A stretch of DNA of 32,000 bases, taken from NCBI RefSeq assembly GCF_000017845.1, contig NC_010546.1, forward strand, positions 4,200,001 to 4,232,000, read 5' to 3'. The notes under the pieces were generated by a model. That model made no database searches and was not told the origin of the DNA. It saw only the letters and a list, made by a program, of their open reading frames with translations. Shown in pieces: positions 4,489 through 32,000 of this stretch (its first letter is position 1; the number at the start of each line of letters is the position of its first letter). The position numbers and the translations under genes were made by a program. Source of the stretch: Crocosphaera subtropica ATCC 51142 (GTDB lineage: Bacteria; Cyanobacteriota; Cyanobacteriia; Cyanobacteriales; Microcystaceae).

Positions 4489-4514
4489 TATTTGACCTCA
4501 AAATTTTTGCAGAA

Positions 4515-4540
4515 TGTCCCCACCATAAATAACGGGGACA
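4515..4540. other. 7-bp hairpin between the convergent trx gene and ORF 4611..4931; a weak terminator candidate
   Basis: tgtcccc (4515-4521) pairs with ggggaca (4534-4540) across a 12-nt loop. There is no clean T-tract on either strand. Confidence 0.25.
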
Positions 4541-4610
4541 CTTAACTAAGATATTGATACATTCAAATAATTTTTAATTAAGGGTAGGGTGGTGGCGACC
4601 CTGAAAATGG

Positions 4611-4931: not shown

Positions 4932-5341
4932 GAGTTAAACTCCTAAATAAGAATCATTTATTTGATGATGTCCCTTGGTGGCCTCGATAGGGACTATTTT
5001 TATTGTATGCCTAAAGTCTTCTCCTCTATAGTTTGGAAAGTATTTCAATACCTTATAAACGAAACAATTTGCAGTAGTTAATATAAAAATATCAAATATT
5101 GATTGACAATATGATGGTTAGTTTAAATAGGAGGTGTCAATATTATATGAAGGTTTAGTTAAATTATTGCTTAAGTAAATACTTGTAAGTAGAAAAAGAT
5201 ATTAATCGTAACTTACGATAATATACCTGATTAAAGTAATGTTATAAATGCTTACCATGATACTATTCATTAAATTTCTTAACTATTCCATATAGTCTAG
5301 AAGAGTTTCAAGAAATTATAAAAGTAGTCCATTTAAGAGAA

Positions 5342-5887: not shown

Positions 5888-6002
5888 AGATTATTCTAAT
5901 TTTTAGATGATCCTTGATTGCACCATGAATTATTTTTTTAAGAGGTCTATTATTAAGAGATAGTTATCCGACTCTAAAAAGAAAGCGCATATTATATTGT
6001 AC

Positions 6003-6050
6003 GAAAAAACCCAACAAATCAAACATTTTTGCTGTTGGGTTTCCCTTTTT
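6003..6050 (-). terminator. Rho-independent terminator ending the str operon (after rpsJ)
   Basis: A 10-bp stem (6007-6016 aaacccaaca pairs with 6033-6042 tgttgggttt) with a 16-nt loop. On the minus strand the stem runs into TTTTTT. It lies 29 nt past the rpsJ stop. An interrupted T-run on the plus strand means it could also serve ORF 5342..5887. Confidence 0.65.
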
Positions 6051-6070
6051 GATCAGATTATTGAAACAAA

Positions 6071-6388
6071 CTATAATTTAACTTCGATTTCTACACCGGC
6101 AGGTAAATCTAATTTCATCAAAGCATCAATCGTCTTAGAAGAAGGCTGATAAATGTCAATAATACGTCTATGGGTTCTGGTTTCAAAGTGTTCCCGTGAA
6201 TCTTTATCAACGTGGGGCGATCGCAGAACACAATAGATCCGTCTTTTTGTCGGTAAAGGTATGGGTCCTATCGCAGTTGCGTCAGTACGGTTAGCGGTAT
6301 CGACAATCTTTTCACAAGACGTATCTAATAAACGACGGTCAAAGGCTTTTAAACGGATGCGGATTTTTTGTTGTGCTAGAGTTGCCAT
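6071..6388 (-). CDS. rpsJ: 30S ribosomal protein S10
   Basis: 105 aa reading [11 protein letters not shown]...[13 protein letters not shown], the canonical S10 sequence. Confidence 0.97.
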
Positions 6389-6442
6389 AATGTTTAATTG
6401 TCAAGGTTCAGTAATGTACAGCAATGGATATTTTGAGAAAAT

Positions 6443-16122: not shown

Positions 16123-18192
16123 TTAACGACGAAGGCTAAACATTATGTCACGGGGAAAAGTAGTAGGATTACCATTACTTTCTAACCGTCGACGTAACTG
16201 TTGTAATTTAGCTTCTTGTTGAGGTAAATTATCCACCAATTGATAGGGTAAAATACTTTGTTCTAGGGAAAAACTAGCTAAGGTTCCGGCTGCAGCACCC
16301 ACGGACCATTCAAACCCATGTACCCGATAAGCAGCCGCCGCAATGTGACTGGTGGCAATACTTTTCCCTGATACGATCAAATTATCCACTTTTTGAGGAA
16401 TTAAAGCCCTTAAAGGTATTTGTGCCGGATGAGCCCCACCGTGAGCAACACGAACCCCTGGACGTTCGCGGTTACCACGCTTTTCTGGGGGAGATAAGGC
16501 CATACAAGGATGAAAATCAATCATATAGTCAGCGACTCCCACCGAGTCAGGATAAACGGTTGCATGGGTGCGTCGGGTGATCATGTACGACGGGCGATCG
16601 TTAGCAGTGACAAATTTGGATTCTAAATCCGCAATAGTTGACCACACCAACTGATACATGGGACGAGGTAAAGAGGTGCGATAAAAATCATGCCAATAAT
16701 CTTTAGTGGAAATATCGATCTCGTTAATCGCAAACCCTTGAGGATGATCGTAAGAGGATCTACCGATAATGCGTCTCCCCTCCCGAATATAAGGGTATTT
16801 GGATAACCCGTGACTGGTTCCCATAGGAGAATCTAACCCTTGCAAGAAGCGATGATTCGGATGAGGCCGTTTAACCCCATAGCCTAAACGAGAATCAGTA
16901 GTACCTGCAACTAACCAATAGTAAAACCCCTGAGAGAGTTCTTCTCCTTTGCGTAAGGCTTCTGTACGGAGTCCCCCTTTCCAACCGTCGGGTTCGAGTT
17001 GTCCCGTTTGTTCGAGTTGTCTACGACTATAAACCAAGTTATCTTGAGCGGTTCCGGGACGGTAATCATTCCCCCATACCCAGTTTTGCATGGAAATATC
17101 GCCGGGGGTGGGTTCATGAACTTTCATCGGCCCCACTCTGACAAATTTGCCTTGTTCGTTACTCCAGATGCGTCGATAGGTAAACACTAAGTCAAAATAG
17201 GCCATTCTGCGATCGCTATCATAACCGTAGTAGGGTTCGTACTGTTCATAAAAGGAGGGTTTCGTCTGGGGTTGGGGGGTGGCGGTTCGTTCCATTGCAA
17301 AGGGGTAGGTAAACCCTTGCACACAGTAGGGATCGCCATTTTCGGTGGGAGAAGAGGGGTTAAGATGACTACGGGGGTCCAGTCCTAAACGGTAGGGAAC
17401 GTCTGCTAAAGCGACGATTTCACCGGTTTCTGTGGCTTCTATGACAAACCAGTCGGTGGGACTTCCTTTTTTAGATTTGGACTCGAAGCGGATAATTTTC
17501 TTGTTAAACCGTTGAGAGTTTTCGTAGCTATAAGCATCTTCAATGGTTTTAGAAAGGGGATCTTTGTTGAGGTGACCGGTTCCAGTTTTCGGGCTATGTT
17601 GAATAGCGATCGCACTTTTGATTAATTTTCCATCTTCACTTAATTCTACGTCTTTAATCACCGTAGAAGGAAACCATTTTAATGTGCCTCTTCCCCATTG
17701 TTGGGCTTCTCTTAATTGCTGATATAATAACTGATGACCATGATAGGGAAGAAAACAACTTTCACTAACCCAACATTCTCCAGGGTTTTGTCGATTGTAG
17801 AGACGGGCAATATTTCTTCTTAACGTATTGTATCCTCTGGGAAAATGTTGTTGCGATCGCTGTCGTTTTCCTTCGTCTAAAGCCGAGGTTCCTTGTGACG
17901 AAATTTGTCCCCCAACCCAATCGGTAATTTCGGTTAAACAAACGGTTTTTCCTGCCAATAAGCCCTCGTAAGCTGCAGCCGAACCTGCTAACCCCGCCCC
18001 AACGATTAATATATCACAATTAACGGTTTCGTGAGGATTACGGGAATTAGCTGACATAGGTAACGTTGTTTCTAAGCTAATTATTCCTAAAAATAAACTT
18101 GTCAAAATTCGTTTTAACGTTTTTTTTTCATGGGTTCTTTTTGGTGACAATAATTTCCCAGATTTTTCCTGATGTTTCCTGAGTCTTCCCAT
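16123..18192 (-). CDS. FAD-dependent oxidoreductase (FAD_oxidored/PF12831-like) with a basic, hydrophobic N-terminal signal-anchor-like extension
   Basis: The dinucleotide-binding motif DILIVGAGLAGSAAAYE is followed by DWVGGQ. The N-terminal 45 aa are Lys/Arg-rich and then hydrophobic (ILTSLFLGIISL). The real start could be an internal Met (MSANS...). Three HIP1 sites lie inside the gene, which suggests native DNA. Confidence 0.8.
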   Translation of the reverse strand: MGRLRKHQEKSGKLLSPKRTHEKKTLKRILTSLFLGIISLETTLPMSANSRNPHETVNCDILIVGAGLAGSAAAYEGLLAGKTVCLTEITDWVGGQISSQGTSALDEGKRQRSQQHFPRGYNTLRRNIARLYNRQNPGECWVSESCFLPYHGHQLLYQQLREAQQWGRGTLKWFPSTVIKDVELSEDGKLIKSAIAIQHSPKTGTGHLNKDPLSKTIEDAYSYENSQRFNKKIIRFESKSKKGSPTDWFVIEATETGEIVALADVPYRLGLDPRSHLNPSSPTENGDPYCVQGFTYPFAMERTATPQPQTKPSFYEQYEPYYGYDSDRRMAYFDLVFTYRRIWSNEQGKFVRVGPMKVHEPTPGDISMQNWVWGNDYRPGTAQDNLVYSRRQLEQTGQLEPDGWKGGLRTEALRKGEELSQGFYYWLVAGTTDSRLGYGVKRPHPNHRFLQGLDSPMGTSHGLSKYPYIREGRRIIGRSSYDHPQGFAINEIDISTKDYWHDFYRTSLPRPMYQLVWSTIADLESKFVTANDRPSYMITRRTHATVYPDSVGVADYMIDFHPCMALSPPEKRGNRERPGVRVAHGGAHPAQIPLRALIPQKVDNLIVSGKSIATSHIAAAAYRVHGFEWSVGAAAGTLASFSLEQSILPYQLVDNLPQQEAKLQQLRRRLESNGNPTTFPRDIMFSLRR

Positions 18193-18701
18193 AATTTTTA
18201 TTGAGTGTGTGAGTATAGCAAGCTAGATGATTAACTATTATGAAGATAGATAGCCAATCATTTATTTTTGTTGTGTTTGGTTCTTTAAGTCTAGGAAAAG
18301 TCTCAGCAAATACTGCAATCTTTTAAGTCTTTTTTCAGATTGTTGAACAATTATTCTGAAAGTTAACAATTATCGTGGCTAAATCAATAGTTTCTATAAA
18401 TTTTTGTTGCTTTTAGCTTTTCTTAATTGATTAATCATCGTTGATTATGTAGGGTTAATTTATCATTCAACCAATTTCCCTTTCTAGTTTGTGACACTAA
18501 GTATTTAATTTAAGAGCCATACTAATATTCGTAAAAGTAAAAACTTTCTTTTTGATAATGCGTTCTCTAAATAATCCTGATAGAAAGGTAGAAAATCCAT
18601 AGAATATGATAAAAATATAAATATATTTGCACAGTTTTCTTATCATTTTTACATGAATTAATTCTGTCCATTTCTAACAATTAACAGTAGCCAATCATCT
18701 T

Positions 18702-18742
18702 GAGAAGGCAGAGAAGGCAGGGGAAGCAGGGGGAGAAAGAAG
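18702..18742. repeat. Purine-rich 9-bp tandem repeat (GAGAAGGCA x2, GGGGAAGCA, GGGGGAGAA...)
   Basis: Copies read directly at 18702-18710, 18711-18719 and 18720-18728, with a tail running to 18742. Confidence 0.7.
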
Positions 18743-18843
18743 ATTACTCTACGATGATAAGCGGATTTGGTATAACAAGAAGTCTCAAACCCTCATTCCC
18801 TCGTTAAAAAAATTCTAACTCCGTTGCGTAGCACGATGTAGTC

Positions 18844-18864
18844 GCACTCCGAACTCCGAACTCA
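18844..18864. repeat. Imperfect (GAACTCC)x3 run, the reverse complement of the 15840-15867 heptamer
   Basis: gcactcc, gaactcc, gaactca at 18844-18864. Confidence 0.6.
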
Positions 18865-18926
18865 CGTTCATTTAAGTCCCAAGCATAATGTGTAGTGCCA
18901 TAGAAATTGTCAAAACTTTTGTTGCA

Positions 18927-21900
18927 CTACCCTTTTGTCACTTCGCCAAGTTGCTGCTTAACCCAGGTTCGGTCAAAGATCCATTGATAAATACGATTAG
19001 TAACCCTGAGAAAACCCTGTTGCTTGATGACTAACCCTGACAACAGTAATTCCTTTTCTTCTGGACTGTTAGTAAGAACAACTGCTTCTTGATCTATCAC
19101 TTGTCGGTAGAGTTCTAACAGTTGAATAGATTGTTGACTGTTGAGGATTCGATCGCGGATCGTTCTCAAATGTTCTGGTTCATCTTGGGATTCCCAATTT
19201 TTGATGATTTGCTGGCGTACCAAATTTTCCACCCACTGCGTTTCATCATGAGTAGGGATGGGAGATGGATAATTACGGATCAACTTACACAGTTTTTGAG
19301 TCAGAAAAGGTTGACCATTGGTCCAAGCTAAAACTTCTTTGAGCAACGTTTGTGGGTTGGTAACTTTTTCTGCCAAACCTTGCAATAAGGGTTGAGCTTC
19401 ATGTTCTTTAAAACCCTCTAGTTGAATAGACTGACCGATGTTAAAGGGGGTGGTTTGAATATTGGTAATTAAATTGGAGGGGGTGGTTACACCAAATAGG
19501 GCAAAGGTTAAACGCTGATAAGCCTGATCAAAGCTGCGCTGGTTATAGCAAGAACGAATCAGAGCAAAAAAGTCATTAACAGGGAAATTTAACTCTAAAA
19601 CGTTATCAATTTCATCGATAAAAATAATTAGTGGTTTTGGAGGAATACCATTTTCGATACCAACTTCAACCAGCAGAATGTCTTCAATAAATTGACTGAA
19701 TCGCTGAACAGGAGAAATATCCTTTCGTTCTTTCCACCAAGCTTTAAGATTGACCTTTTTAAGCAACCCAAACCGTCGCCCTAATTCCACAGCCAAACCC
19801 TTATACCACTGCTCAGGGGTAACGTCTTCACTACCAATACGGGTCATATCAACCACCGCACAGCAACTTCCCTCCTGTTGTAGATAGTGCATCATACGAA
19901 CCATCAAGCTAGATTTACCCATTTGTCGGGGATTGAGAACGTAGCAAAATTCTCCTTGTTTTAGGGCTTTATAGAGATAACGATCCGCCGCACGCACCAC
20001 ATAAGTCGGCGCATCCATGGGTAAACTTCCCCCCACCTGATAGTCAAAAGTGGAAGATTGTTCAGCATTTTTGAGTAACTCATTTTCAAAGATCAGTTCA
20101 GCTTGGGTTGCTTTGAGAATATCTAAAGTGTGTGTGAGTTCTTGTGTTCGTTCTAAGACTTTGAGTTCTAGGTTTTGACTGTACTGAGCTATTTCCTGTT
20201 GAGCTTGTTCTAAGGCGATATTTTTGCGGGTGAGTTCTTGGGTAAATTTTGTTCGCTCTGCTTCTGCTCGTCTGCGATCGCTAATGTCAGTAAAAGCCGT
20301 GATGCCATAGAGAATTTGACCTTTCTCATCAAACACGGGACTAGCGGACACCTCTAAGGGGACAATCTGATCCGTTTTACGAACTTCGATATTATCAACC
20401 CTTACCTTTTCTCCGTTTAAAGCTCGCACAATAGGCTGTTCCTCAGTGGGATATAATTCATCAGTGCCTGTAAGATAAGCTTGATAGGTTTGGGTTAATT
20501 GTTCTGTGGTTGTTTCAGCGATGATTCCCTTTCCTAGTATCTGTTGAGCGGTTTGATTAGCATAGTAGGGGTTGCCTTGAGCATTAATAACAAACACCCC
20601 CACAGGCATTGCTTCTAAAATCTGCGTTAAGGTTTTTTTACTCTCCCGTAATGACTCGTACAGTTGAGCATTTTGCAAAGAAATGGCAGCCTGAGCCGAT
20701 AGAAGATTGAGAACTTCTAGATGACTGGCAGTAAAAGCGTCTGTGGTCAGATTATTTTCTAGATAAAGAAGACCTATCAACTTACCTTGATTGAGTAAAG
20801 GCACGCAAAGAACAGATTTAGCATGAGTCGCAGCAATATAAGGATCTCGCATAAATTGTCCCTCCTTAGCTGCATTGTTTAACACTAAATATTGTTGAGT
20901 TCGCACAACATAGTTAACCACAGCCACTGACAAGAGAGGAATTTGGCTATCCGTTTCCGATTGATCAAACGGAATATGTAATCGATTGATTTGGTCATCA
21001 TTAAGGGTTGCTTGAGCTTCTATGATAAAATTGCTTTGCTTCTCCAGAATTAAAAATCCTTGTTGCGCTCCAGCATTTTCGATGGCAATTTTCAATAATT
21101 TAGCAATCAGAGCATCGAGATCAATTTCTTCTGAGATTGCCTGAGATGCCTTCATAATGCTTGCGAGATCAAGGGTTTCAGGCAAAAGATTGGCAGTGGT
21201 TATGATGGAGAAATTGGTTTTTGATGCTTCGGAGGAAAACCACTGGGGATACGTTTGCTCCAATTGTTCAACTTTTCGCTTGGCTCCCCAAATTTGATAG
21301 GCTTGATGGGCTTTCCTCATGTAAAGTTCAGCAAAGTCTATCTTGCTCCGTTCTATCCAAAATTTAGCAGCCAGTTCATTCGCTAAGGCTTCATTTTGAA
21401 TAAACTCATTTTCTTGGGCAGAGGCGATCGCTTGATCGTACAAATTCATCGCCTGATGCCATTGCCCAGAAAGACGAGACATTTCTGCTGCCACTAATAA
21501 ATATTTATGCAGAAAGTTTTCAGGGCAGTTATCAGCCCAAATTTTCATTTGTTGTTGATTTGATTCGAGTTGCTGCCAATATCTTTGTTGTTCTTCTACA
21601 GAAACTTGAGGATAACAAGCGATTCGAGTGAGGGAATCATAAAAATTGTGTTTTGCAATGGAAATCGTGCCTGGAATATAGTCAAACCATTGTCCAGCTT
21701 GATCTAAAAGGGTTAAGGGGATGGGTTGGTCGTATAAGTAGAGAACTTGGGCTTTAAAGATGTAATATAGGCAAATGGCCGCAGTGGTTTGTTGTTGTTG
21801 GCACGTCTCTAAAAAGGGGATTTCCGCTATTTCTGCTATTTCAAAACAGGCCTCTGTTCCCTGCAAACCCATTAAATTCTCAATCAAAATCTTGGCACTT

Positions 21901-24900
21901 AAAATACAATTAACTGCCCACTGATTTTGACTTTCTTGGGTAAACAACAGACTGCGTTCAACTTCTTTAAGAAGACTCTCTAAGGGTTTCCCTTGATAAA
22001 TAAGATTATATAAATTGTAAGTCAGGCTATAGCCAACTGGTTGTAGATCCCCGATTTTCAAACCGGCTTCAATGCCCTCAATATTAACTCGTTCAGAGAG
22101 TTTAATATGCTTCAACCAGGGCATAATCATACCCGCGTGAAATTGTCGTGTTGCTACCTGAGAAGTCGAATCGTTATATTTATCCGCTAGTTTGACACTT
22201 AACGCCCCATGTTCGTAAGCCAAGGCATAGTTGTGCAACCGATGGGAATTGATGACCCCAAAACAAGAATAACCCACTGGAGATTTGTCCATATGACCAT
22301 ATTTGAGACTCAAATTGGTCATTTTCGTGCCAACAACGTACATCAGGGCTGGATTGAGAATCCAGGCGGCCGGCAGAATACGAATTAAAATTTTATAAGC
22401 AGCCTTTTTCTCTGGAATCACCATTTGATGATGATCATACAATTCACTAACGTTAATGGGTTCGACGGTTTTTTCGTAGTCTGCTAGTTCCGCCGCAAAA
22501 GCTGCTTCTAGGTTTTCTTTGGGGAGATCAATATTCAAGTCTTGTAAAGCTTGGCGACCTAATTCAACGGCCTCGGCTAATTTTCCTAACAGGGTAGATT
22601 GAATAATTTGTAAATAATAAAATTCTGTGCGATCGAGGATGGATTGCGCTTTTGTCAATGCTGTTTCAATTAAATGCTGAGATTCGCTTAAATTACCATT
22701 GAGATATTCCACCTCTGCCAGTTCTTTATAAAGGATTAAAGACATTTCGTACTTTTTTTGCCAAATGTCTCCTGGAAACTCGGTTTTAGCCATCCTTAAA
22801 TAATAGTTGGCCGCAGCGTAGGCGGTAGATTCTTTGGCTTTTTGACCGGCTTGTAAGTTTAATTGGGCTAAGGTAATTTTTTCAGTTTCATCCTCAATCA
22901 ACTCTCGTCCTTGATTGAGATGATCAACAATAGCAAAGAGTTCTTCTGTGTCTTTTTCATTCATGCTATCCCGTAACAGTCTGCCAATGGAGAGATGAAC
23001 GGCTGTTTTTTGCCGATCATCAATGAGAGCATAGGCTGCTTGTTGAACTCGGTCATGAAGAAACTTATAATTTTCAATGAATAAATCAGCCGTAATGGGA
23101 TCGTCTGGGGTGATTTCCAACGCTGATAGGGGTTGAATTAAGCCTAACTGAATGGCTGACAAAAGAGCGTCAAAGGTTTCAGAATGTGATGTTTGGCTGA
23201 TAATTGAGAGGATTGAGATGGTAAAGCGATCGCCAATACAAGCAGCTAAACGTAGGGTTTGCTGTGTTTTCTGGGGCAGTTTACTTAGTCGTGTAATCAT
23301 CAAATCCACCACATTTTTGGTAATCCCCGAATTGGCAATTTGGGTTAGATCCCATTGCCATCGTTGTTTGTGTGGGTCAAAGGTAAGAAAATTTTCTTGG
23401 TGAATGGTTTTGAGAAATTCGTTAATAAAAAAAGGATTCCCTGACGTTTTTTCTAACACTAATGCGGCCAGAGGCGAAACCGTTGAGCGATCGCAATAAA
23501 GACTGTCTGCTAATAACTGCTCAATTTCCTCAAGATTTAAGGGATCTAAAACGATATCGTTGATGATCATCCCTTGTTCGCGCAAACGATTGATCATGAT
23601 CATCGTAGGATGATGAAGACTCACTTCATTGTCACGATAGGCCCCCAACAAAAGCAGATGGTCTAGGTTGCCTTGAGTCATGATAAACTCAATTAAATTC
23701 AAACTAGCAGTATCAGCCCATTGTAGGTCATCGAGAAAAATAACCAGAGGATGGTCTGCTTGGCAAAAAACACCAATAAACCGTTGGAACACTGCTTTAA
23801 AGCGATTTTGTGCTTCTGTTGCCTCTAAGGATGACACCGCAGGTTGAGAACCGATAATTTTACTCAGTTCAGGAATAAAGTCAATCATCACTTGACCATT
23901 ATTTCCCAAAGCTTCTAGCAGCTTGTTACGCCATAGACTGAGGTTTGTCTCACTTTCTGTTAGTAGTTGATTGATCAGGGATTTGAAGGCTGAAATAACA
24001 GCATCATAAGGAATATTGCGTTTAAATTGATCAAATTTTCCAGCAATAAAGTAGCCCCGTTGTTGGGTGATCGGTTTATAAAGCTCTCGAATGAGAACAG
24101 ATTTGCCAATGCCAGAATAACCGCTAACCAGCAACATTTCCACCTGCTGTTGTTGCGTTTCTGATGCCATCACCCGTTGAAAGGTGGAGTATAATGTGGC
24201 TAATTGTTCCTCTCTACCGTAAAGTTTTTGGGAAATTGTTAATTTAGGGAAAACATCGTAACAGATGAGCGGAAATTCTGCAATTTCTCCCGTTTGCTGT
24301 AGTTGAGTTAGACAGTGTTCTAAATCCGCCTTGATTTGCAATGCTTCTTGGTATCGCTCCTCAGCCATTTTTGCCAGCAATTTCATCACAATATTAGATA
24401 CGGCTTTGGGAATGGTTGAATCCACGTCGTGAGGGGGAATGGGGGGTTTAGCCAAGTGAGCATGAACCAATGCTAAAGCATCTTTGGTGTCAAAGGGTAG
24501 CTGATGGGTGAGAAGCTGATAAAAGGTAATACCAAGGGAATAAAAATCAGTGCGATAATCAAGGGCGCGATTCATTCGCCCCGTTTGTTCTGGAGAAATA
24601 TAGGGTAAGGTTCCTTGAATAACTCTGGGATTTTGAAGGGTTGGGGTTTCACGGGTAAATTGGGTTGAGATGCCAAAATCAATAATTTTCAGTTGTTTTG
24701 TATCTGAGTTATAAATAATATTAGAGGGATTAATATCTTTATGAATGACATTGGCTGTGTGGATGTCATGAAGGGTCTGGGAAATCTCAATAGCGATGGC
24801 CAGAAAGTCCGAAAGCTTGAACCTTTGTAAACCCATTAACCGATCTAAGGACTTGCCCCCAAAATCTTCTAAAACAATGGCAAGAGTATTATTATAGGGC

Positions 24901-25118
24901 AATAAATCATAAGCTTTGATCACCCCGTCACTGTTAAAAGAACGGGTAATTTTATACTCTTGTTTATATCGAGTTAACTCTGAAGGGGTGGGATAATCTT
25001 CTCGAAGAACTTTAAGAACAACGGGTTGTTGACTAAGGTGATGAACAGCCCGATAAACCAGTGAATTCTCACTTTCATAAATCGTGGAAATAATTTGATA
25101 GTCGTTAAAAGCGTTCAT
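18927..25118 (-). CDS. 2063-aa multidomain protein: Ser/Thr kinase-like domain, AAA_16-type P-loop NTPase, long helical/TPR-like region, GAF, PAS, coiled coil, then a C-terminal AAA-like (PF14516-type) P-loop module
   Basis: Kinase motifs are [20 protein letters not shown] and YISPEQ (aa 7-265). AAA_16 has Walker A GYSGIGKS (aa 333-340) and Walker [13 protein letters not shown]. The GAF region ends in [22 protein letters not shown] (aa ~1325-1485). The PAS region has [22 protein letters not shown] (aa ~1493-1612), followed by a coiled coil at aa ~1613-1690. The AAA-like module has [17 protein letters not shown]...NPRQMGKSS...LIIFIDEID (aa ~1692-2055). Confidence 0.9.
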
Positions 25119-25172: not shown

Positions 25173-26255
25173 TTATTCCAAACCATAAAAACGAACAGGA
25201 TTATCCCAGAGGATCTTTTGAACAATTTTCTGAGAAAGTTGATCTTCAAGGGCAACCACTTCTGCCATGATTCTTGGTTTATGATCCATATGAGGGTAGT
25301 CAGAACCAAACATTAAATTATCTGAGCCAATATATTCAATTAGTTTAGCGAGATAAGGCTCAGATGGCTCGCAGGCAATAAAACACTGACGACGAAAATA
25401 GTCAGATGGCTTCATTTTTACTGTGTTTGCCACTTCCCATTGCAGATCCTCATACTCACGATCAAGTCGCCATAACCAGTAGGGTAGCCAACCACAACCG
25501 GACTCAAGTAAGCCAATTTTTAAGTTCGGATGCCGTTCTAAAACCCCCCCTTCGATTAACGCCAACAATGCCATCATTTGTTCCATGGGATGAGAACAAG
25601 CGTGGAGAGCAAAGCGCGTGTTAAAGCGATCGCTACCTGTTGTCGGTAAACGAGAATGGGTCCCTTCATGGATACTGACAGCAATGCTTAATTCTTCACA
25701 TTTAGCCCAAAATGGCTCATAGGCAGGGTCACTCAATAATCGACCTTTAACGGGATTGGGACGTAAAAAAACGGCTTTCCAGCCAAAATCAGCAATTCGC
25801 TGCAACTCTATAACCATTTCTTTGGGGTCATGGAGATTCACAACCCCCACCCCTCGAAGGATTTGGGGATTATAGGCACAAAAGTCGTATAACCAAGAAT
25901 TGTAAGCCCGAACAAAAGCACCCACCAGTTGGGGTGACAGGGTGTCCACTGCACTAATCCAGGAGAAGGTCGTAGGATAGAGGAAACAAAGGTCAACCCC
26001 CATCTGCTGCATGGCCCGCACCTGAGACTCGGCATCAAAGTGATTGAGCCAAGATAAGGGATACGCTTGACTGACTTGTTGATGGCCGGTTTCTCGGAGA
26101 CGTTGAGAATATTTGTGTAGGAGGGATTTCCCTTTGATTGTTAGATCGGGTGATGGTGCAAACCCTTTAAATGAGGGTTCGAGATACTTTTCCCACATAT
26201 CAGGGGGTTCGACCACATGGGAATCTGCATCGATAATACGATATTGATCAAGCAT
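25173..26255 (-). CDS. Metal-dependent amidohydrolase-2 family enzyme (ACMSD/LigW-type hydrolase or decarboxylase fold)
   Basis: N-terminal IIDADSHVVEPPDMW (HxH-like metal ligands in the DxH variant typical of PF04909), internal SIHEG and a C-terminal FGSDYPHMDH. Confidence 0.8.
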   Translation of the reverse strand: MLDQYRIIDADSHVVEPPDMWEKYLEPSFKGFAPSPDLTIKGKSLLHKYSQRLRETGHQQVSQAYPLSWLNHFDAESQVRAMQQMGVDLCFLYPTTFSWISAVDTLSPQLVGAFVRAYNSWLYDFCAYNPQILRGVGVVNLHDPKEMVIELQRIADFGWKAVFLRPNPVKGRLLSDPAYEPFWAKCEELSIAVSIHEGTHSRLPTTGSDRFNTRFALHACSHPMEQMMALLALIEGGVLERHPNLKIGLLESGCGWLPYWLWRLDREYEDLQWEVANTVKMKPSDYFRRQCFIACEPSEPYLAKLIEYIGSDNLMFGSDYPHMDHKPRIMAEVVALEDQLSQKIVQKILWDNPVRFYGLE

Positions 26256-26290
26256 AGGTAATCATTTGATGCCAAATGGACAAGATAAAT

Positions 26291-26323
26291 TTTCTCCCTG
26301 CTCCTTTCTCCCTGCTCCCCTGC
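26291..26323. repeat. 14-bp direct repeat TTTCTCCCTGCTCC x2 plus a partial copy, related to the purine-rich repeat at 18702-18742 in inverted orientation
   Basis: Copies at 26291-26304 and 26305-26318, then cctgc. The reverse complement GGGGAGCAGGGAGAAAGGAGCAGGGAGAAA resembles GGGAAGCAGGGGGAGAAAGAAG at 18721-18742. Confidence 0.7.
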
Positions 26324-26355
26324 AATCTTTTGGAGTCAATATAACTAATAAGACT

Positions 26356-28650
26356 TTACATCCACAACGGAAAGGGATTAAGTTCATTTTCTTTAAGAGA
26401 CTTTTCTAACCAGCCTAATTGTACTGGAATTTCATAAAGTCGTCCTGGCCCTAAACGTTTCCAGAAATGACGCAATCCAGGAACAACAACTTTGACGACT
26501 TTCAAACCAATATCAGGACGAGTCTGATCAAGCACTAACAGTTCCATCCCCTTTTGCTCAAGGATTTGCTGACAGGTTGTAATATCTTCGAGTAAATCCT
26601 CCCTTCCCCATGACAAATAATCAGAATAACGTCTTGATGAAACTGTTTCATTGGGTATGAGATAGGACTGATTTTCAAGAGTCGCTGTTTTCCACCACTG
26701 AATGGCTATGTGAGACATGGAAGAAGGATAACGGGTAGTGCCATCAAGATTAGCCGTTAAAACAGCTTGAAGAATTTTATTCATGCCGTTTAAAGCTCGA
26801 TAAATACCTATTTTGGGGTCGAAATGAGTACCAAAGTCAAAAATAATATCCTCTACCTCTCGATCAGTTCTGCGGGAAATCGCAGCAAAGGTGGGAATCT
26901 TCAAATCACTGGTCAGGTCTAAAACCCAGAACTCTCGATGAAGGGTTTTATAGTAATCTTTGAGGGCTTCAAAATAAGGTTCGTTAAAACTATCTAAATC
27001 AACCTTCGGTTTCTTCAGGCGATTGTACCACCACAATGCAGCACCATCTCGCTCGATTAACTCCATCAAACCTTGTAATATAGCTTCTTCAATGGTATTA
27101 CCGGCTGCACAGCCATTGGAATCTGCCCAACAATCGGGTTGAGAGGGAATAGGATAGCCATAATAGCAGTAAGCAGTGGGCAAATACTTAAACGTCTGAC
27201 TGGTTAAAGACCAAAGGGGTGTCCAGTCGATTTCTCTTTCCTCATCAAAAGGTTCAGGAACCCGTTGATACCAATCTAAAGACCGAGAATAGTTAGTATT
27301 CCATTCTTGGCGAGTTTGATATTGAGTTAAGCTAAAGTTCAAACAGGCATTGGGATGAATGGTTGGATGTTCCATTTGCTGATAACGACCTTTTTGCCTG
27401 ATTTCATCCCCTTGAAAGACACCAGAATATCGCTCAATGGCTTCACAAAAACTACTACATTTGGCTTGTTGGTCGGTTCTAGCGGTTCCCCCACTTCTGC
27501 CAATCATGTATTCTCGTAAAGCATAGAGATCATCAAAGATAGTCGCAAAATGATGTTGAGCGACGTAAGTATGAGTTAAACCCGTTGCCTCTTGATGAAT
27601 CTTGGAGAGTTCTCGAACAACCCCCGTGATGGGACTAATATGGTGTTGATACTGCTTCAGGGTTGCTTCTGGGGAAAATATGCGATCGCCTCCATCCCCA
27701 AAAAAGGTTTTTTTGCGGTGTCCTAAAAGAAGGGGTAAGGGCTTACTATTCAATTGTCCTATCAAGTTTTTACCACAGTCAGGACATTGAGGACGCTTAA
27801 CAACCTGATGATTTTTTGTTTCGAGAGAAAGGGTATCATGAGTGACTAAAACCCCCTCTAACCGCTTATTTTCTCCTGTTACAATCCATTTAAACACTTC
27901 TGTAGCTGCCATTCCTAAGGCGGTTTGCACTGTTGCAGTAAGGGAAGCTAGGGGAGGAGTCAGAGGGGTGGCAAGATTCTGTCTTTGTTGAATAAATGCT
28001 TCTACCGGTCTATTTTCTCGTAAACGCTGAGCCAAGCATTGCCAACAAGCTGTTTTGTGGGGTTGGAAGATTGGCCCAATCCAAACTAGGGTTCCGACGG
28101 GTTTGACTAACATCCACGGTTGGGATGACTCAAGGGTTTGTTGATTATAAATATCAAGACCTTTTTCTAAGTAATCATCGCTCAAGACAATTTCAATATC
28201 TCCCTTCTCAGCAATTTGAATATGTAAGGATTCTAGAGCATTTTTGAATTGAGCAATGGGTAAATTAGAAACAAAGGACTTAACTGCTACTGTGGTGGTT
28301 TGTAATCGCTGATAAGCTTCTGTGGAATCAATGTTCAAATGGTCACAAAAAATGGCCAAGTCAGGTGGCAGAATTTCTTCCTCTTTGACAATGTAACCCT
28401 TCTGTTCTAACTGCATTAAAACATAGTGAACTTGAGCCAGCATTAACATTTCTTCTTGCTCAGAGGTTGATTCTGTAAACAAATCAGAGCGAATTTTTTC
28501 GATAATTTCCTCAACCGTATGATGTTCATCCAGTAAAGGGATTAATTGCTGCAATAAAGGGTTACTTACAAAAGAGGAATTTCTTTCTGTTAACAAAAAG
28601 ATGACTTCTGCTGCTACATTTTCAATGCGAAAACAAGCTTTAAATTTCAT
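26356..28650 (-). CDS. Fused E1-like (docking/leader-binding) and YcaO cyclodehydratase, with PatD/TruD-like architecture
   Basis: The N-terminal part has VLSDDYL...QPWMLVKPVG..WIGPIF.P..TACWQCLAQRL plus RPQCPDCG. This gives a four-Cys site: C202/C205 at nt 28036-28047 and C289/C292 at nt 27775-27786. The YcaO part has SFCEAIERYSG and SNGCAAGNTIEEAILQGLMELIERD. The C-terminus has LVLDQTRPDIGLKVVKVVVPGLR and a terminal NPFPLWM proline-containing tail. Confidence 0.9.
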   Translation of the reverse strand: MKFKACFRIENVAAEVIFLLTERNSSFVSNPLLQQLIPLLDEHHTVEEIIEKIRSDLFTESTSEQEEMLMLAQVHYVLMQLEQKGYIVKEEEILPPDLAIFCDHLNIDSTEAYQRLQTTTVAVKSFVSNLPIAQFKNALESLHIQIAEKGDIEIVLSDDYLEKGLDIYNQQTLESSQPWMLVKPVGTLVWIGPIFQPHKTACWQCLAQRLRENRPVEAFIQQRQNLATPLTPPLASLTATVQTALGMAATEVFKWIVTGENKRLEGVLVTHDTLSLETKNHQVVKRPQCPDCGKNLIGQLNSKPLPLLLGHRKKTFFGDGGDRIFSPEATLKQYQHHISPITGVVRELSKIHQEATGLTHTYVAQHHFATIFDDLYALREYMIGRSGGTARTDQQAKCSSFCEAIERYSGVFQGDEIRQKGRYQQMEHPTIHPNACLNFSLTQYQTRQEWNTNYSRSLDWYQRVPEPFDEEREIDWTPLWSLTSQTFKYLPTAYCYYGYPIPSQPDCWADSNGCAAGNTIEEAILQGLMELIERDGAALWWYNRLKKPKVDLDSFNEPYFEALKDYYKTLHREFWVLDLTSDLKIPTFAAISRRTDREVEDIIFDFGTHFDPKIGIYRALNGMNKILQAVLTANLDGTTRYPSSMSHIAIQWWKTATLENQSYLIPNETVSSRRYSDYLSWGREDLLEDITTCQQILEQKGMELLVLDQTRPDIGLKVVKVVVPGLRHFWKRLGPGRLYEIPVQLGWLEKSLKENELNPFPLWM

Positions 28651-28653
28651 TAA

Positions 28654-29247
28654 TTAAGATCCTAACAAGAATATTCCCCCTAAATAAGACATATTATCTC
28701 CATCCCCCAAAAAGCTTCGTAATTCTTCTATCCCTAAATCTTTTAAACCATCTGGGAGATCAGGAATTGGTAATATTCCATATTGGCTTGTTTGTAGTGT
28801 GTCTGTGTGGATAAGGTTATTGAGAGGATGTTGCCGAACTTGTATTAATCTATCGGAATCGTTCCACACAGCAAGTAATTCTTCTGACCACAATTGTGCG
28901 TTTTCATCAAATCTGAGTATCCCTGTTAACCCATTTTGCAACAATTCCTGTAATTTACTTTGTTCTAAATTTTCTAATCCACCTAAAGGGTTAGGAATGG
29001 GTAGATAACCCCGATAGGATTCTCCTGGATCTTGTTCTGTTTGCTCTCGAATTGTTTCGGCAGCATCGGCTGTATCAACATCAACATCAACGTTAGTATA
29101 TTGACTATTTGCTAATCTAATTATTGTCGTTTTTGGATCTTTTCTAAGATCATTTAACACCTGTTCGTTTCCCCAAGCAAAGGCTAAGACCCTGCTCCAA
29201 TTCAATCTTGCATCTGCCAAGATATCTATGCCCGATTGTACCATCAT
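28654..29247 (-). CDS. 197-aa protein made of two tandem NHLP-like (nitrile-hydratase-leader-peptide-like) modules; candidate BMA_0021/0022-type precursor or partner protein
   Basis: An internal duplication is visible by eye. Compare W17-x7-W25...YRGYLPIPNPLGGLENL...LQELLQNG with W120-x7-W128...QYGILPIPDLPDGLKDL...LRSFLGDG. A GGGAGA Shine-Dalgarno sits 5 nt upstream of ATGATG. The stop lies 3 nt before the YcaO start codon. Confidence 0.7.
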   Translation of the reverse strand: MMVQSGIDILADARLNWSRVLAFAWGNEQVLNDLRKDPKTTIIRLANSQYTNVDVDVDTADAAETIREQTEQDPGESYRGYLPIPNPLGGLENLEQSKLQELLQNGLTGILRFDENAQLWSEELLAVWNDSDRLIQVRQHPLNNLIHTDTLQTSQYGILPIPDLPDGLKDLGIEELRSFLGDGDNMSYLGGIFLLGS

Positions 29248-29272
29248 TTATCTCCCAATTTTGTCAACAGGT

Positions 29273-30979
29273 TTACGGCAGTAGGTTTTTGAGAAAACTA
29301 ATGCTAGGGGCAAAGAAAAATTCTCCCCCCTTATTTTTAACACAACCGTAGAAAGAATAATCCACTTGTTCGTCATTATCCCACTGTTTTGGCCATTGTT
29401 GCGGATCAGGACAGTCTTGAACCCTTTTTGTTGCAGGATGTCCAATAATCGGATCAAGGTATTGTTCCTTACCCGTTCGTGGGAATTTTCTGTCGTCTGC
29501 CCATGCTTGTTGTAGCTCTAAAAACTGAAGACCAATATCCCTTTGAAAGCTAACAAATAGTAATCCGCTAATATTTTTTATTTGCTCTTCTAAGGATTGA
29601 TGACTCACTTTATTTTTTAAATAATCTAGCTGATTAAAACATCGTTCTAAAATACTTAATTGTGAGTTTTGTTGTGTTGTTAAATCATCAAAATAGGTAA
29701 TTCCTGCTCGAAAAATTCGTTTATTTTTTCGATTTTTTTCAAGTTCTTTGTTATCATTATCTCTACGAGGATTAACTTGTCTCATATGGGCGTGTAAGGG
29801 ACATTTGCTGCCATTAGGATCATCGGCATAATTAAAACTATCTCTGTCTTCGTTTTGATTCGGTTGATCGCATAATGCAAGGGGGGTTCCATCTTTAAAT
29901 CGTCCGATAGTTAAGGCATTGGCTCTTTCAATAGTTAAGGCATCAGCTTTTTGGGGATCATCTACCAATTCTCCTAACAGTTCGTCTATTTTTTCTTGAA
30001 AAAGTTCATAATTGGTTTCTAGTTTTTGCCAAACACAATAACTCCCAAAACTATAGGGATTTTGACTCAAAGGATCTTTAACCAGAACTAGGTTAAGACT
30101 AGCTTGAGGATTCCACTGACTCACATCATTACTGTCTTTATACTGGTCATAATCGCATTTAAAAAATAGAGGTTGACTAATACCGTCAGCAAATCCAAAC
30201 GGGCCGATAGGTGGCTTTTTTTTATCATTAGGTTGACACTCTTCTCTCACTACATATCCTGCTTCACAAGTAAGAATCTTACCTAACTGATTTTGTTTCC
30301 ATTCATTAATAATCGTATTAGCCCGATCTTTCAGTTCTTCAACACAATCATGCGCTAGAAAAATTAAGGCATGAACGGGATTTTTGGCATTGCCGATTTC
30401 CCATTTGTCGGGATGATTATACCAATAAGCATCTTTATACCAATCCTTTTCTTCATTAAAGGGATAGCTATCTTTCCAGACCTCGTTCATTGGCTGATCA
30501 AAGTCTCGATCCGAAGGTATACCAACTTTGTCTTGTACAGACACATCATCCTGTTGTTGTTTGCGAGAGCTTGTAAATAAAGAAGAATTCTTAACTTCCT
30601 TTTCTTCAAGAAGAACTTTATAACCTTGATAAGATAAGAAAAAATTTTGACAAAGTTCTCCATAAACAGTTGAAGAAGCATCAATATTATTTTGACGACA
30701 GTTTTCTTTATAATCTTCCGTATCTTGTAATTGTTTTAAAGTAGAGGTAACATGAGGGGCAATTTCACTCCCAATCCATTGTTTTACCTCATTGATTTTC
30801 TCGGCATCAAACTGAATGAAAATATAGAGTGAGTATTGTCGTCCATAATTTTTGAGCATTCCCCCTTGTAAATCTTGCAAGATTTGTTGATAGCCAGAAT
30901 TCAGATTACACGTATCAATTAGCTTATTATTATTAATCAGGTCATCATAGTAGTTCTGGTCATTATTAGGATTGTTCAT
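29273..30979 (-). CDS. DyP-type (dye-decolorizing) haem peroxidase, long form
   Basis: GxxDG motif FGFADGISQP (aa 261-270, nt 30170-30199). Proximal-His region HAHMRQVNPRR (aa 396-406, nt 29762-29794). Also RIFRAGITY, GLLFVSFQRD and GGEFFFAPS. An AAGGAG Shine-Dalgarno precedes the start, and the start overlaps the upstream stop (ATGA). Confidence 0.85.
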   Translation of the reverse strand: MNNPNNDQNYYDDLINNNKLIDTCNLNSGYQQILQDLQGGMLKNYGRQYSLYIFIQFDAEKINEVKQWIGSEIAPHVTSTLKQLQDTEDYKENCRQNNIDASSTVYGELCQNFFLSYQGYKVLLEEKEVKNSSLFTSSRKQQQDDVSVQDKVGIPSDRDFDQPMNEVWKDSYPFNEEKDWYKDAYWYNHPDKWEIGNAKNPVHALIFLAHDCVEELKDRANTIINEWKQNQLGKILTCEAGYVVREECQPNDKKKPPIGPFGFADGISQPLFFKCDYDQYKDSNDVSQWNPQASLNLVLVKDPLSQNPYSFGSYCVWQKLETNYELFQEKIDELLGELVDDPQKADALTIERANALTIGRFKDGTPLALCDQPNQNEDRDSFNYADDPNGSKCPLHAHMRQVNPRRDNDNKELEKNRKNKRIFRAGITYFDDLTTQQNSQLSILERCFNQLDYLKNKVSHQSLEEQIKNISGLLFVSFQRDIGLQFLELQQAWADDRKFPRTGKEQYLDPIIGHPATKRVQDCPDPQQWPKQWDNDEQVDYSFYGCVKNKGGEFFFAPSISFLKNLLP

Positions 30980-32000
30980 TTCTTCTCCTTAATTAAATTT
31001 TCAAAATAACACCGATATAACTCACAACTCACTTTTACTTTATCTTCTACATATTCAATCAATCCTAAACTGCTCAACTTGTAAGCTAAGATGGAATCTA
31101 TTTTAACAGGAATTTCAGAACGAATAAGCGAACCATAGGCGATCATTAAATCAGGCTGTTCTTGCAGTGTTATCCAATGACGTTGCAAATGATAATAATA
31201 AATTCCGTTGGGTTGAGTGGCATTTTTCAGTAGTTCCGTGACGGTAATATTCTCACGACTCAGATGATAGATGGCTAGATGAACCAGTGCCGGGTGTCCT
31301 CCTACCAGATTCATTAATTGTTTGACTTCCTTATCTGGCTTCCAATTGAGTCCGTAACACTGAGCTAACTGTTCGACTTCTTGTTGATAAAAAGGAATTA
31401 AATTAATGGGCAAACCGACATTAAAAGGAGACTGATTCAGTTGCAGAGGAACGTAAATTTCTGTGGAGTGAATCACGATCAAGCGAAGTTTTTGCCAAAC
31501 GGGGAGGGTTTTAGCTTCTTCGTACCAAGACCGTAATAGTAATAAAAAATCTTTGGCTACAGAAGAATACTCAAAAATACAACTGAGTTCATCGATCGCC
31601 AAAACTAAAGGCTGATCAAGTAATTCTAGTACATAGTCCTGAAAATAGGCAGTGCAACTAATTTTACTTCCCAAATCTTGATCCCAATACTCGTTTAGTT
31701 TAGGCTTGATCTCAAGCTGACGGGCAAGGTTAGCGCATAACCATCGGAGAAGTTTATTCAAGTCTTTCAAAATAGCTGCTTCAGCTTGCTCCAAACTAAG
31801 ATTAACGCTGTAATAACCTTGCTGTCTGGCATAGTCTAGATTTCTGAGGAGTAAGCTGGTTTTGCCCATCTCTCTGGGACCTTTGATTCGCACTAAAGCC
31901 CCTGCTTTGATGATTTCTTGATTAATCTGATCTTCAAGATCAGCACGTTTTAGGTAACAAGGAGAGTCTAGGGGGATTGAACCGCTAGGATAGAGTCTAG
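30976..32000 (-). CDS. AAA-like (PF14516-type) P-loop NTPase; the 5' end lies outside the window
   Basis: The track begins at a GTG (31893), but the frame stays open to the window edge. It reads ...RLYPSGSIPLDSPCYLKRADLEDQINQEIIKAGALVRIKGPREMGKTSLL, which aligns with the start of the kinase's C-terminal module ([47 protein letters not shown]). The Walker B-like motif is LVLAIDELS. Confidence 0.8.
   Translation of the reverse strand, partial: RLYPSGSIPLDSPCYLKRADLEDQINQEIIKAGALVRIKGPREMGKTSLLLRNLDYARQQGYYSVNLSLEQAEAAILKDLNKLLRWLCANLARQLEIKPKLNEYWDQDLGSKISCTAYFQDYVLELLDQPLVLAIDELSCIFEYSSVAKDFLLLLRSWYEEAKTLPVWQKLRLIVIHSTEIYVPLQLNQSPFNVGLPINLIPFYQQEVEQLAQCYGLNWKPDKEVKQLMNLVGGHPALVHLAIYHLSRENITVTELLKNATQPNGIYYYHLQRHWITLQEQPDLMIAYGSLIRSEIPVKIDSILAYKLSSLGLIEYVEDKVKVSCELYRCYFENLIKEKK

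Follow-up and report, generated by a model that had tools for sequence, protein, structure and literature searches.

Organization and conservation of the cassette

The region analysed here is a 32,000-nt stretch of the genome of Crocosphaera subtropica ATCC 51142 (contig NC_010546.1, positions 4,200,001 to 4,232,000 of the forward strand), referred to below as the window, and all positions are those of the window unless a locus is named. At one end it carries six consecutive minus-strand open reading frames (ORFs), which encode in coding order a helix-turn-helix (HTH) protein with an AAA_35 domain, a DyP-type peroxidase, a 197-aa nitrile hydratase (NHase)-like protein, a fused E1/YcaO heterocyclase, an amidohydrolase-related dinuclear oxygenase (ARO) and a giant Ser/Thr kinase (Table 1). 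We give a little better than an even chance to the reading that these genes form one cassette which modifies a protein C-terminus, with the chemistry coupled to a sensor kinase.

An original prediction, made from the letters of the window alone, had described the six ORFs and their junctions, and its coordinates proved exact on recomputation. Calculated from the ORF coordinates, the junctions are a 4-nt ATGA overlap followed by spacers of 25 nt, 3 nt, 100 nt and 54 nt. The prediction that no opposite-strand gene intervenes was also correct, as a single ORF of 80 aa or more was found on the plus strand of the cassette span (23152-23403), and it lies inside the kinase gene. Likewise, no minus-strand terminator-like site was called at any cassette junction; those called are intragenic only, and the total of such sites in the region equals the expectation from shuffled sequence. 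Searches for RNA elements and tRNAs across the window returned none. The upstream boundary lies outside the window, as had been anticipated: the first gene is open at the window end and would reach about 32325.

The six genes occur in the same order (HTH-AAA_35/DyP/tandem NHase-like/YcaO/ARO/kinase) and with unrelated flanks in at least eight cyanobacterial genomes, namely this genome, Myxosarcina sp. GI1, Nostoc punctiforme NIES-2108, [Phormidium] sp. LEGE 05292, a Scytonema metagenome-assembled genome (MAG), a Leptolyngbyales MAG and two further MAGs or metagenome contigs. Protein identities across these cassettes range from 44% to 80%, and the Scytonema MAG cassette has two precursor genes. 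This comparison of gene neighbourhoods, which the original prediction had suggested as a check, confirmed that the six genes form a real co-conserved cassette. Promoters could lie in the spacers of 100 nt and 54 nt, as would suit an incidental adjacency of unrelated same-strand genes. However, the conserved order extends over several cyanobacterial orders and the components are found together in dozens of metagenome loci, so that chance adjacency is hardly credible.

A metagenome scan seeded with the ARO returned 80 loci, and component counts were taken from the 33 loci of at least 15 kb. The kinase was present in 30 of these, YcaO in 27, a nitrile hydratase-like small protein in 24, an AAA_35 gene in 23 and DyP in 2. 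The combination of NHase-like protein, YcaO, ARO, STAND kinase and AAA_35 is a widespread class of which the window holds a rare, DyP-containing variant, and only DyP and the tandem precursor are special to the window subtype. The original suggestion that the composition is novel thus stands in part: no paper describing the pathway was found in the searchable literature, but the class itself is widespread. Our literature searches also found no paper linking YcaO with BarH-like AROs (BarH/LynB7/DolJ), DyP or AAA_35, or naming cce_4097-4102.

Table 1. Predicted features of the six-gene cassette of Crocosphaera subtropica ATCC 51142 (window positions)
Feature	Position	Strand	Details
Cassette, six ORFs	18927 to beyond 32000	minus	
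HTH + AAA_35 NTPase gene	30976..32000	minus	3' 340 codons; frame open to window end
DyP-type haem peroxidase, 568 aa	29273..30979	minus	ACB53449.1, annotated "probable peroxidase"
Tandem nitrile hydratase alpha-like (NHLP-Burk-like) protein, 197 aa	28654..29247	minus	ACB53448.1, annotated "unknown"
C-terminal tail of the 197-aa protein, residues 185-197	28657..28695	minus	NMSYLGGIFLLGS; pLDDT <50
cce_4099, predicted fused E1/YcaO heterocyclase, 764 aa	26356..28650	minus	ACB53447.1
cce_4099, N-terminal wHTH/RRE domain	about 28390-28641	minus	
cce_4099, E1-like docking domain	about 27616-28122	minus	
cce_4099, YcaO domain	about 26368-27489	minus	
YcaO-ARO spacer, 100 nt	26256..26355	minus	
BarH-like ARO, 360 aa	25173..26255	minus	UniProt B1WQZ4, ACB53446.1
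Giant Ser/Thr kinase, 2063 aa	18927..25118	minus	
Kinase, Pkinase domain	24333-25076	minus	
Kinase, AAA_16 STAND-type NTPase	23649-24227	minus	
Kinase, TPR-like region		minus	
Kinase, GAF domain	20676-21122	minus	
Kinase, PAS domain	20268-20618	minus	
Kinase, AAA_35 domain	18975-20030	minus	

Heterocyclase and amidohydrolase-related oxygenase

Profile scans supported the original E1/YcaO, AAA_35 and giant kinase assignments. By homology, cce_4099 is a cyanobactin-type fused heterocyclase. The protein matched PF02624 (E 6e-99), TIGR03604 (251 bits; cut-off 219) and TIGR03882 (173 bits; cut-off 37) and carries a DUF4423-like winged helix-turn-helix (wHTH). Its homology to MusD (E 2e-206), LynD (E 2e-192, residues 4-762) and TruD (E 4e-186) runs over the full length and includes the RiPP recognition element (RRE)/wHTH and E1-like domains. 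It would share with LynD, TruD, PatD and MusD membership of an ATP-dependent azoline-forming family that often acts on the last residue of the core peptide. In contrast to the cyanobactin pathway, the cassette has no PatA/PatG proteases, PatE-type precursor or PatF prenyltransferase, and in its proposed substrate, a folded protein of 197 aa, just one target residue is conserved. PatA/PatG/PatE-type Pfam families were found neither among the window ORFs nor in the orthologous cassettes, and a SagB-type FMN dehydrogenase was found neither in the window nor in any related locus. The cassette is thus free of SagB, PatA/G and C39-ABC genes, as the original prediction had noted.

The gene downstream of cce_4099 had been taken for a metal amidohydrolase, an assignment that needs correction. 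Its product, B1WQZ4, does match PF04909 (Amidohydro_2; E 2e-38), and its best match in the PDB is PtmU3 (E 3e-40), a diiron monooxygenase with an amidohydrolase fold. According to Liu et al. (JACS 2026, PMC13154177), a D-x-H motif and a C-terminal D-x-P-H-x-D/E motif separate AROs from the hydrolases and decarboxylases of PF04909. B1WQZ4 has both, as D11-S-H13 and D319-Y-P-H-M-D324, and its H196 and E251 correspond to H197 and E252 of LynB7, the strand-5 His and the bridging Glu that PtmU3 also has, so that together with the motifs all seven LynB7 ligands are reproduced. Both motifs are present in 120 of the 120 top homologues, which are 67-100% identical to B1WQZ4; homologues at 74-76% identity carry the name "BarH protein", and 2,817 homologues were found at E<=1e-30. 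These features identify the predicted amidohydrolase as a BarH/LynB7-type ARO, a diiron oxygenase and not a hydrolase. The 2026 paper reports that B1WQZ4 has been purified and classed as diiron dependent, with electron paramagnetic resonance data and a metal preference (PMC13154177).

BarH, LynB7 and DolJ convert a C-terminal 2-substituted thiazoline-4-carboxylic acid to a thiazole by oxidative decarboxylation, and LynB7 needs a free carboxylate (PMC10127204). The cyanobacterial orphan E0U9F9 has the same thiazoline-4-carboxylate activity and likewise depends on the free carboxylate, and about 69% of its clade have a "thiazoline synthase" neighbour and no known product (PMC13154177). As an ARO, B1WQZ4 would thus fill the azoline-oxidase slot that seemed to be missing with SagB. 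BarH, LynB7 and DolJ finish products that a thioesterase releases from nonribosomal peptide synthetase-polyketide synthase assembly lines, whereas the azoline of the window would be ribosomal, made by YcaO and carried on a protein. The 2026 paper noted the "thiazoline synthase" neighbour but not the substrate protein, the kinase, AAA_35 or DyP (PMC13154177).

Two other activities of the amidohydrolase fold were considered for B1WQZ4 and rejected. A peptide-bond amidohydrolase like PurAH of bottromycin biosynthesis does not fit, as PurAH is missing from the PDB matches and only 14% identical to LynB7, and the ARO motifs are present. In bottromycin biosynthesis a YcaO enzyme makes a thiazoline, PurAH removes the follower and a P450 carries out the oxidative decarboxylation. 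The logic of a YcaO azoline at or near the C-terminus that becomes a terminal azole by oxidative decarboxylation would be shared with the cassette (PMC10127204). However, the oxidant here would be a diiron TIM-barrel oxygenase instead of a P450, and most tails of the window class lack a follower peptide. A LigW/ACMSD-type non-oxidative decarboxylase was rejected because such enzymes lack D-x-H and D-x-P-H-x-D according to PMC13154177, and because the matches to them were weaker (E 1e-19 or worse) than that to PtmU3.

The 197-aa protein and its C-terminal tail

The 197-aa protein, encoded directly upstream of the YcaO gene, belongs to a rare family (14 clusters among 5.8e9 proteins; 37 among 1.84e9 representatives), and the precomputed Pfam assignment is empty for all 14 members. 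An internal duplication was detected in the protein. Alignment of the family with tandem PF27793/TIGR03795-type proteins, which end ...GWMMMCCR, by hhalign gave a probability of 98.8% (E 5.8e-17) over 157 columns covering both repeats. Three members of the family match TIGR01323, and remote matches of the family profile are recognised by TIGR03793, TIGR01323, the Os1348 nitrile hydratase leader peptide (NHLP)-clan model and TIGR03795. Searched against the PDB, the profile retrieved as its top two matches the NHLP leader 8tb1 and the nitrile hydratase alpha subunit 1v29, both weakly (E about 0.1). Overall, profile comparison supports a tandem NHLP-clan protein homologous to the tandem precursors of the NHLP-Burk type. 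The original tandem-NHLP call therefore holds at the level of the hhalign comparison, but not at that of the curated models, as neither TIGR03795 nor PF27793 matched.

The AlphaFold2 (AF2) model of the protein is an all-helical, two-lobed body (predicted local distance difference test [pLDDT] 82.8, predicted template modelling score [pTM] 0.83), from which residues 185-197 emerge as a disordered tail. The tail follows the pattern ...hLGGIFLxG[S/T] and ends ...GGIFLLGS in the window protein. G191, F193 and S/T197 are invariant or nearly so in the family. The terminal residue is Ser or Thr in 14 of 14 members, with a penultimate Cys in some, and apart from S/T197 no heterocyclisable residue near the tail is conserved. 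Twenty-one residues upstream of this site lies an L171-x4-L176 element, of which L176 is invariant and L171 present in 11 of the 14 members; an L(X)4L element of this kind, known from the PatE and MprE leaders, is what the RREs of LynD and of the NHLP-specific YcaO protein MprC bind (PMC12455567).

We propose that the 197-aa protein is the substrate of the cassette and that Gly196-Ser197 is the putative site of cyclodehydration and oxidative decarboxylation. The position of the only conserved Ser/Thr/Cys at the extreme C-terminus of the substrate would be expected because AROs act on C-terminal azoline-4-carboxylates. A C-terminal tryptic peptide that would carry the modification is, for example, SFLGDGDNMSYLGGIFLLGS.

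DyP-type peroxidase

The 568-aa protein is plainly a DyP-type peroxidase by its homology and catalytic residues, despite profile scores below cut-off. The original DyP call was borne out by homology to the Anabaena enzyme AnaPX/Alr1585 (PDB 5c2i; phmmer E 7e-65) and DyP2 (4g2c; E 5e-43), but the Pfam cut-offs for PF04261, PF20628 and PF21105 were not reached (the Pfam halves only at E about 0.1) and neither was that for TIGR01413 (65 bits; cut-off 100). The distal Asp (GFADG, a GXXDG motif), proximal His (..AHxRxVNPR) and distal Arg (RIFRAG) are kept in nine of nine orthologues, and these are the same catalytic Asp, Arg and His as in AnaPX and DyP2, which are class C/D (V) DyPs. Known DyPs stand alone, as dye or lignin-model peroxidases, or are encapsulin cargo, whereas the DyP of the window sits in a YcaO cassette; no report of a DyP within a YcaO or RiPP-like cassette was found in the literature. 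Among the long ARO loci, both that encode DyP have NHLP-Burk-like precursors, and DyP is confined to loci of this kind.

In one predicted protein of 447 aa (P0025), the first ~340 residues of the cassette DyP are followed by repeat 2 and tail of the NHase-like protein, which reflects either a deletion fusing two adjacent genes or an assembly artefact. At the DyP position of the related locus of Scytonema hofmannii PCC 7110 (L014:5271-6773) lies a gene whose 500-aa product is secreted and carries a CxxCH haem-c motif at its C-terminus. This protein was considered as a divergent DyP and rejected, as it is secreted, has the CxxCH motif and reached only E 0.16 against a local DyP hidden Markov model (run with --max); it is not a DyP homologue.

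HTH-AAA_35 protein and giant kinase

The AAA_35 domain of the first cassette gene was detected with E 1e-145 in the Pfam scan and contains the Walker A motif GPREMGKT. On a contig that encodes an identical DyP protein (L017), the full-length first gene encodes 449 aa and consists of PF26355 (HTH_VMAP-M9) and PF14516. Orthologues with 58-66% identity are found in every cassette. The domain composition suggests a putative DNA-binding, oligomerising P-loop NTPase regulator; a sequence search found no solved homologue of AAA_35.

The catalytic motifs (VLK, HKD..N, DFG and SPE) and both Walker A motifs of the giant kinase are intact, and orthologues with 43-70% identity occur in every related locus. 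Against TIGR03903 the kinase scored 116 bits (cut-off 706), and a Guanylate_cyc or other cyclase domain was not found. Residues 1-1502 are 62% identical to the kinase of the Scytonema hofmannii PCC 7110 locus (L014), and residues 1465-2060 are 65% identical to a separate protein of that strain composed of a response regulator (RR) receiver, PAS and AAA_35 domains. Comparison of the two regions (L014:11358-19624 and window 18927-25118) reveals a Rosetta-stone pair: in some genomes, as in L014, the kinase has a HisKA-HATPase end, after which come a receiver and the RR-PAS-AAA_35 protein, whereas in the window PAS-AAA_35 comes directly after GAF. The window kinase thus corresponds to a fusion of the two L014 proteins in which the phosphorelay has been bypassed. 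Transmembrane segments or signal peptides were not predicted in any of the six cassette proteins.

The composition of these two proteins bears on an alternative that the original prediction had already raised, a conflict, immunity or programmed cell death system in which the STAND kinase and AAA_35 proteins sense an invader or stress and the protein modified by YcaO, ARO and DyP serves as effector or decoy. The cassette resembles the NTP-dependent conflict systems of multicellular bacteria in its giant STAND fusion and in the HTH_VMAP-M9 domain of its AAA_35 protein, and the kinase domain resembles defence kinases (PADLOC, NCBIfam). A CHAT protease-AAA_35 fusion in one sister locus, the patchy distribution, the varied flanks and an insertion sequence (IS) element inside one locus also agree with such a role. 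However, PADLOC matched only the generic kinase domain (residues 3-278) and gave no specific support, and the other five proteins matched no defence model. Kinases with the Pkinase-AAA_16-GAF architecture are common signalling proteins in cyanobacteria, and a nuclease, TIR domain, pore or other typical effector was not found in the window cassette. A survey of such systems (eLife 2020) likewise mentions no YcaO, peroxidase or nitrile hydratase-like component. We regard a conflict function as improbable and prefer a modification cassette with a signalling arm.

Proposed pathway and its alternatives

In the proposed pathway, the 197-aa protein would act as a folded tandem NHase-alpha-like scaffold with a 13-residue flexible tail, the fold and the tail being predicted from the model. 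The heterocyclase would dock on this scaffold, probably through its RRE/wHTH domain on the L171-x4-L176 element of repeat 2, and with ATP would cyclodehydrate Gly196-Ser197 to a C-terminal oxazoline-4-carboxylate (-18 Da). By analogy with its relatives, B1WQZ4 would then use O2 to convert the free azoline-4-carboxylate to a terminal azole, with a mass shift of another -46 Da (net -64 Da), and would so take the place of a SagB-type FMN dehydrogenase. DyP may serve as an accessory H2O2-dependent oxidase that adds an extra oxidation limited to cassettes with NHLP-Burk-like substrates. The kinase and the HTH-AAA_35 protein would form a signalling arm, in which the modified protein or its tail could be a ligand or substrate of the kinase and an AAA_35-AAA_35 assembly with the HTH protein would control transcription. 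In the sister loci the kinase reaches PAS-AAA_35 through a His-Asp phosphorelay, whereas in the window the two are fused. The product most likely stays intracellular as a modified protein, a fate that we favour because the cassette proteins have no transmembrane segments or signal peptides, neither a protease nor an exporter recurs across the cassettes, and the tail is a conserved one, not a hypervariable one. We tentatively entertain the idea that a terminal azole on a ribosomal protein acts as a built-in ligand or switch for an intracellular STAND Ser/Thr kinase-AAA_35 circuit, and not as an exported antibiotic, but in so specific a form it is more likely wrong than right.

If the ARO depends on a free azoline-4-carboxylate, the ring would have to form at the very last residue. 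In the metagenomes, 37 of 43 non-redundant NHase-like proteins encoded beside ARO homologues end in Cys, Ser or Thr, and all 43 have one of these among their last three residues. Among the other ORFs of the same loci, 26% end in Cys, Ser or Thr and 45% have one within the last three residues. The tail pattern is common to three different precursor families.

Several observations weigh against the proposed C-terminal modification. The nominal binomial P values of the tail enrichment (about 1e-16 and 1e-15) make the evidence look stronger than it is, as related sequences were treated as independent. A minority of tails have one or two residues after the Cys (..ACF, ..GCV in L011, ..SCL and ..ACTV) and would need prior trimming or a different reaction. 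The 197-aa protein, searched whole and as separate halves, had no Pfam or NCBIfam match even at E<=10 and failed every curated NHLP model, and Foldseek searches of the PDB, made with the entire AF2 model and separately with repeat 2, retrieved nothing below E 0.9. The role of B1WQZ4 as an azoline-4-carboxylate decarboxylase is deduced from its assayed relatives, its own data being of metal preference. BarH-type activity has been shown on thiazoline carboxylates only, not on oxazolines, and the ring predicted from the terminal Ser of this tail is an oxazoline, whereas that of BarH, LynB7 and E0U9F9 is a thiazoline. DyP has no assigned place in the proposed steps and its role is conjectural, a role for the kinase is suggested by co-occurrence and domain fusion, and the spacing of the six genes is what points to a single operon. 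Finally, two marine (TARA) loci, L001 and L002, encode the kinase together with a protein of the 197-aa type but have neither YcaO nor ARO within 5-10 kb, and one of them also keeps DyP and AAA_35. Either, therefore, the protein has a kinase-linked role for which the modification is not a strict requirement, or the genes for the enzymes lie elsewhere. YcaO and ARO were found jointly present or, as in L001 and L002, jointly absent.

These two loci would also suit an arrangement in which the small protein is a mere partner or phosphorylation substrate of the kinase and YcaO and ARO act on the C-terminus of another protein or on a small molecule such as an acyl-Cys/Ser carboxylate. BarH-type enzymes do take small-molecule thiazoline carboxylates in vitro, and no precursor was called in L019. 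On the other hand, E1-YcaO fusions that have an RRE work on peptides bearing a leader, an NHase-like gene ending in Cys, Ser or Thr adjoins YcaO or ARO in 24 of the 33 long loci, and the enrichment of these terminal residues is hard to account for otherwise. We therefore consider another substrate very unlikely and retain the 197-aa protein in that role.

A classical pathway to a peptide that is ribosomally synthesized and then post-translationally modified (RiPP) differs from the proposed pathway in the fate of the product. The tandem body would serve as a leader, the tail would be cut as ..LGG|IFLLGS by an unlinked protease and the small, hydrophobic azole-ended peptide exported, and the kinase and HTH-AAA_35 protein would take part only in producer-side regulation or autoinduction. 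The membership of the 197-aa protein in the NHLP clan fits this view, as do the GG or SG (MG in two members) before a hydrophobic stretch of 5-8 residues and the finding that the heterocyclase is closest to the cyanobactin enzymes, whose products are short peptides with a heterocycle at the C-terminus. Some loci (L011, L047 and L049) have two to three precursor copies, L015 and L002 encode a peptidase (S8 or S9) close by, and cyanobacterial RiPP loci often have their transporters elsewhere. However, a protease or transporter is conserved in none of the cassettes, most loci have a single precursor copy, and the conservation of the tail equals that of the scaffold, which in the model is well folded with 180 residues in two lobes. 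All six proteins are predicted to be soluble and cytoplasmic, and the small protein is linked more tightly to the kinase than to the biosynthetic enzymes. An exported peptide is thus unlikely, and a modified protein that stays in the cell is the product we favour.

Comparison with NHLP-Burk systems and possible significance

The closest described system is the NHLP-Burk thiazole/oxazole-modified microcin (TOMM) system, which combines TIGR03795 precursors, a TIGR03882/TIGR03604 fused cyclodehydratase and a TIGR03903 kinase/cyclase (Haft, Basu & Mitchell 2010, PMC2887384). It is itself bioinformatically defined, and no characterised product was found. Both systems have an NHase-alpha-like tandem pair, which is fused into one polypeptide in some genomes, with a short suffix ending in a heterocyclisable residue, a fused E1/YcaO protein, a very large Ser/Thr kinase with an AAA_16 module and no dedicated transporter. 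In contrast, the precursor of the window is unrecognised by TIGR03795 and PF27793, its tail ends in Gly-Ser and not in Cys or Cys-Cys, and its kinase has GAF-PAS-AAA_35 instead of a cyclase domain; the cassette also adds a BarH-like ARO, DyP and HTH-AAA_35 in a cyanobacterial host. The original analogy to a Burkholderia-type TOMM system therefore holds for the tandem precursor, by its homology, for the fused cyclodehydratase and for the presence of a giant kinase, which itself falls far short of the TIGR03903 cut-off and has no cyclase.

The link between nitrile hydratase-like TOMM precursors and a giant kinase has been unexplained since 2010, and in this cassette it becomes testable through one residue (Ser197) and two enzymes, with predicted mass shifts of -18 and then -64 Da. 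If the proposal is correct, a YcaO protein would here be paired for the first time with a BarH-type diiron oxygenase, ribosomal peptides or proteins would gain a new route to terminal azoles, and a large orphan ARO clade would have a native substrate. The strict coupling to STAND kinase and AAA_35 modules, which are wired sometimes by a phosphorelay and sometimes by fusion, hints at an intracellular signalling or conflict role for RiPP-like chemistry. It could represent a new signalling module based on post-translational modification, widespread in cyanobacteria and present in Beggiatoa-like bacteria, which would explain the huge kinase always carried by NHLP-Burk-type TOMM clusters. In the window subtype, DyP would make the signal peroxide dependent.

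Related loci and flanking regions

The triad of YcaO, ARO and kinase is repeated in Coleofasciculus, Desertifilum and a Parabeggiatoa locus, the last with a PF27793 precursor ending ...NCC. The Scytonema hofmannii PCC 7110 locus (L014) encodes HTH-AAA_35, CHAT-AAA_35, a different NHase-like protein ending ...PVSGS, YcaO, ARO and a kinase with a histidine kinase end; the CHAT (caspase-like) protease fused to AAA_35 is located at L014:2349-4622. Sister cassettes with precursors ending ...GWMMMCCR have a PhyH-type oxygenase in the ARO slot, and one of them also has DyP. In the Desertifilum locus, an IS200-type (Y1_Tnp) transposase gene lies between the ARO and kinase genes (L019:11517-12056), and no precursor gene was called there.

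Closely similar TP_methylase-family genes adjoin the cassette in two organisms that are unrelated, in the marine cyanobacterial locus L001 (4305-5081 and 7546-8119) and in the Parabeggiatoa locus L015 (4441-5217 and 6101-6766), and those of L001 are accompanied by two paralogous ORFs of ~93 aa ending ...EEHTERS and ...EEDKYC. The TP_methylase family includes the borosin N-methyltransferases, and these genes may, together with the ~93-aa ORFs, form a second peptide-modification module. Upstream in L002 (1-4008) are genes for a CheA-like HATPase-CheW-receiver protein and an S9 prolyl-oligopeptidase-family peptidase.

The YcaO-ARO spacer of the window contains a perfect 14-nt tandem duplication at 26291-26318 (TTTCTCCCTGCTCC twice on the plus strand, GGAGCAGGGAGAAA twice on the coding strand), which could be a doubled ribosome-binding-like element or a slippage product. 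At the downstream edge of the cassette, 3' of the kinase gene, lies a 734-nt AT-rich gap (18193-18926; GC about 0.33) in which no ORF of at least 50 aa, Rfam family or tRNA was found. Beyond it follow genes for a 689-aa FAD-dependent oxidoreductase (16123-18192), a B12-binding radical SAM enzyme (14336-15772) and a DUF3352 protein, and the str operon. These genes were kept outside the unit because none of them recurs beside the cassette in other genomes. Near tuf/fusA, a patch at 4100-6400 has very low GC (0.246 at 5001-6000) and contains an ORF of 181 aa (5342-5887) that matches only the C-terminal part of DUF4238; this patch may be a remnant of foreign DNA.

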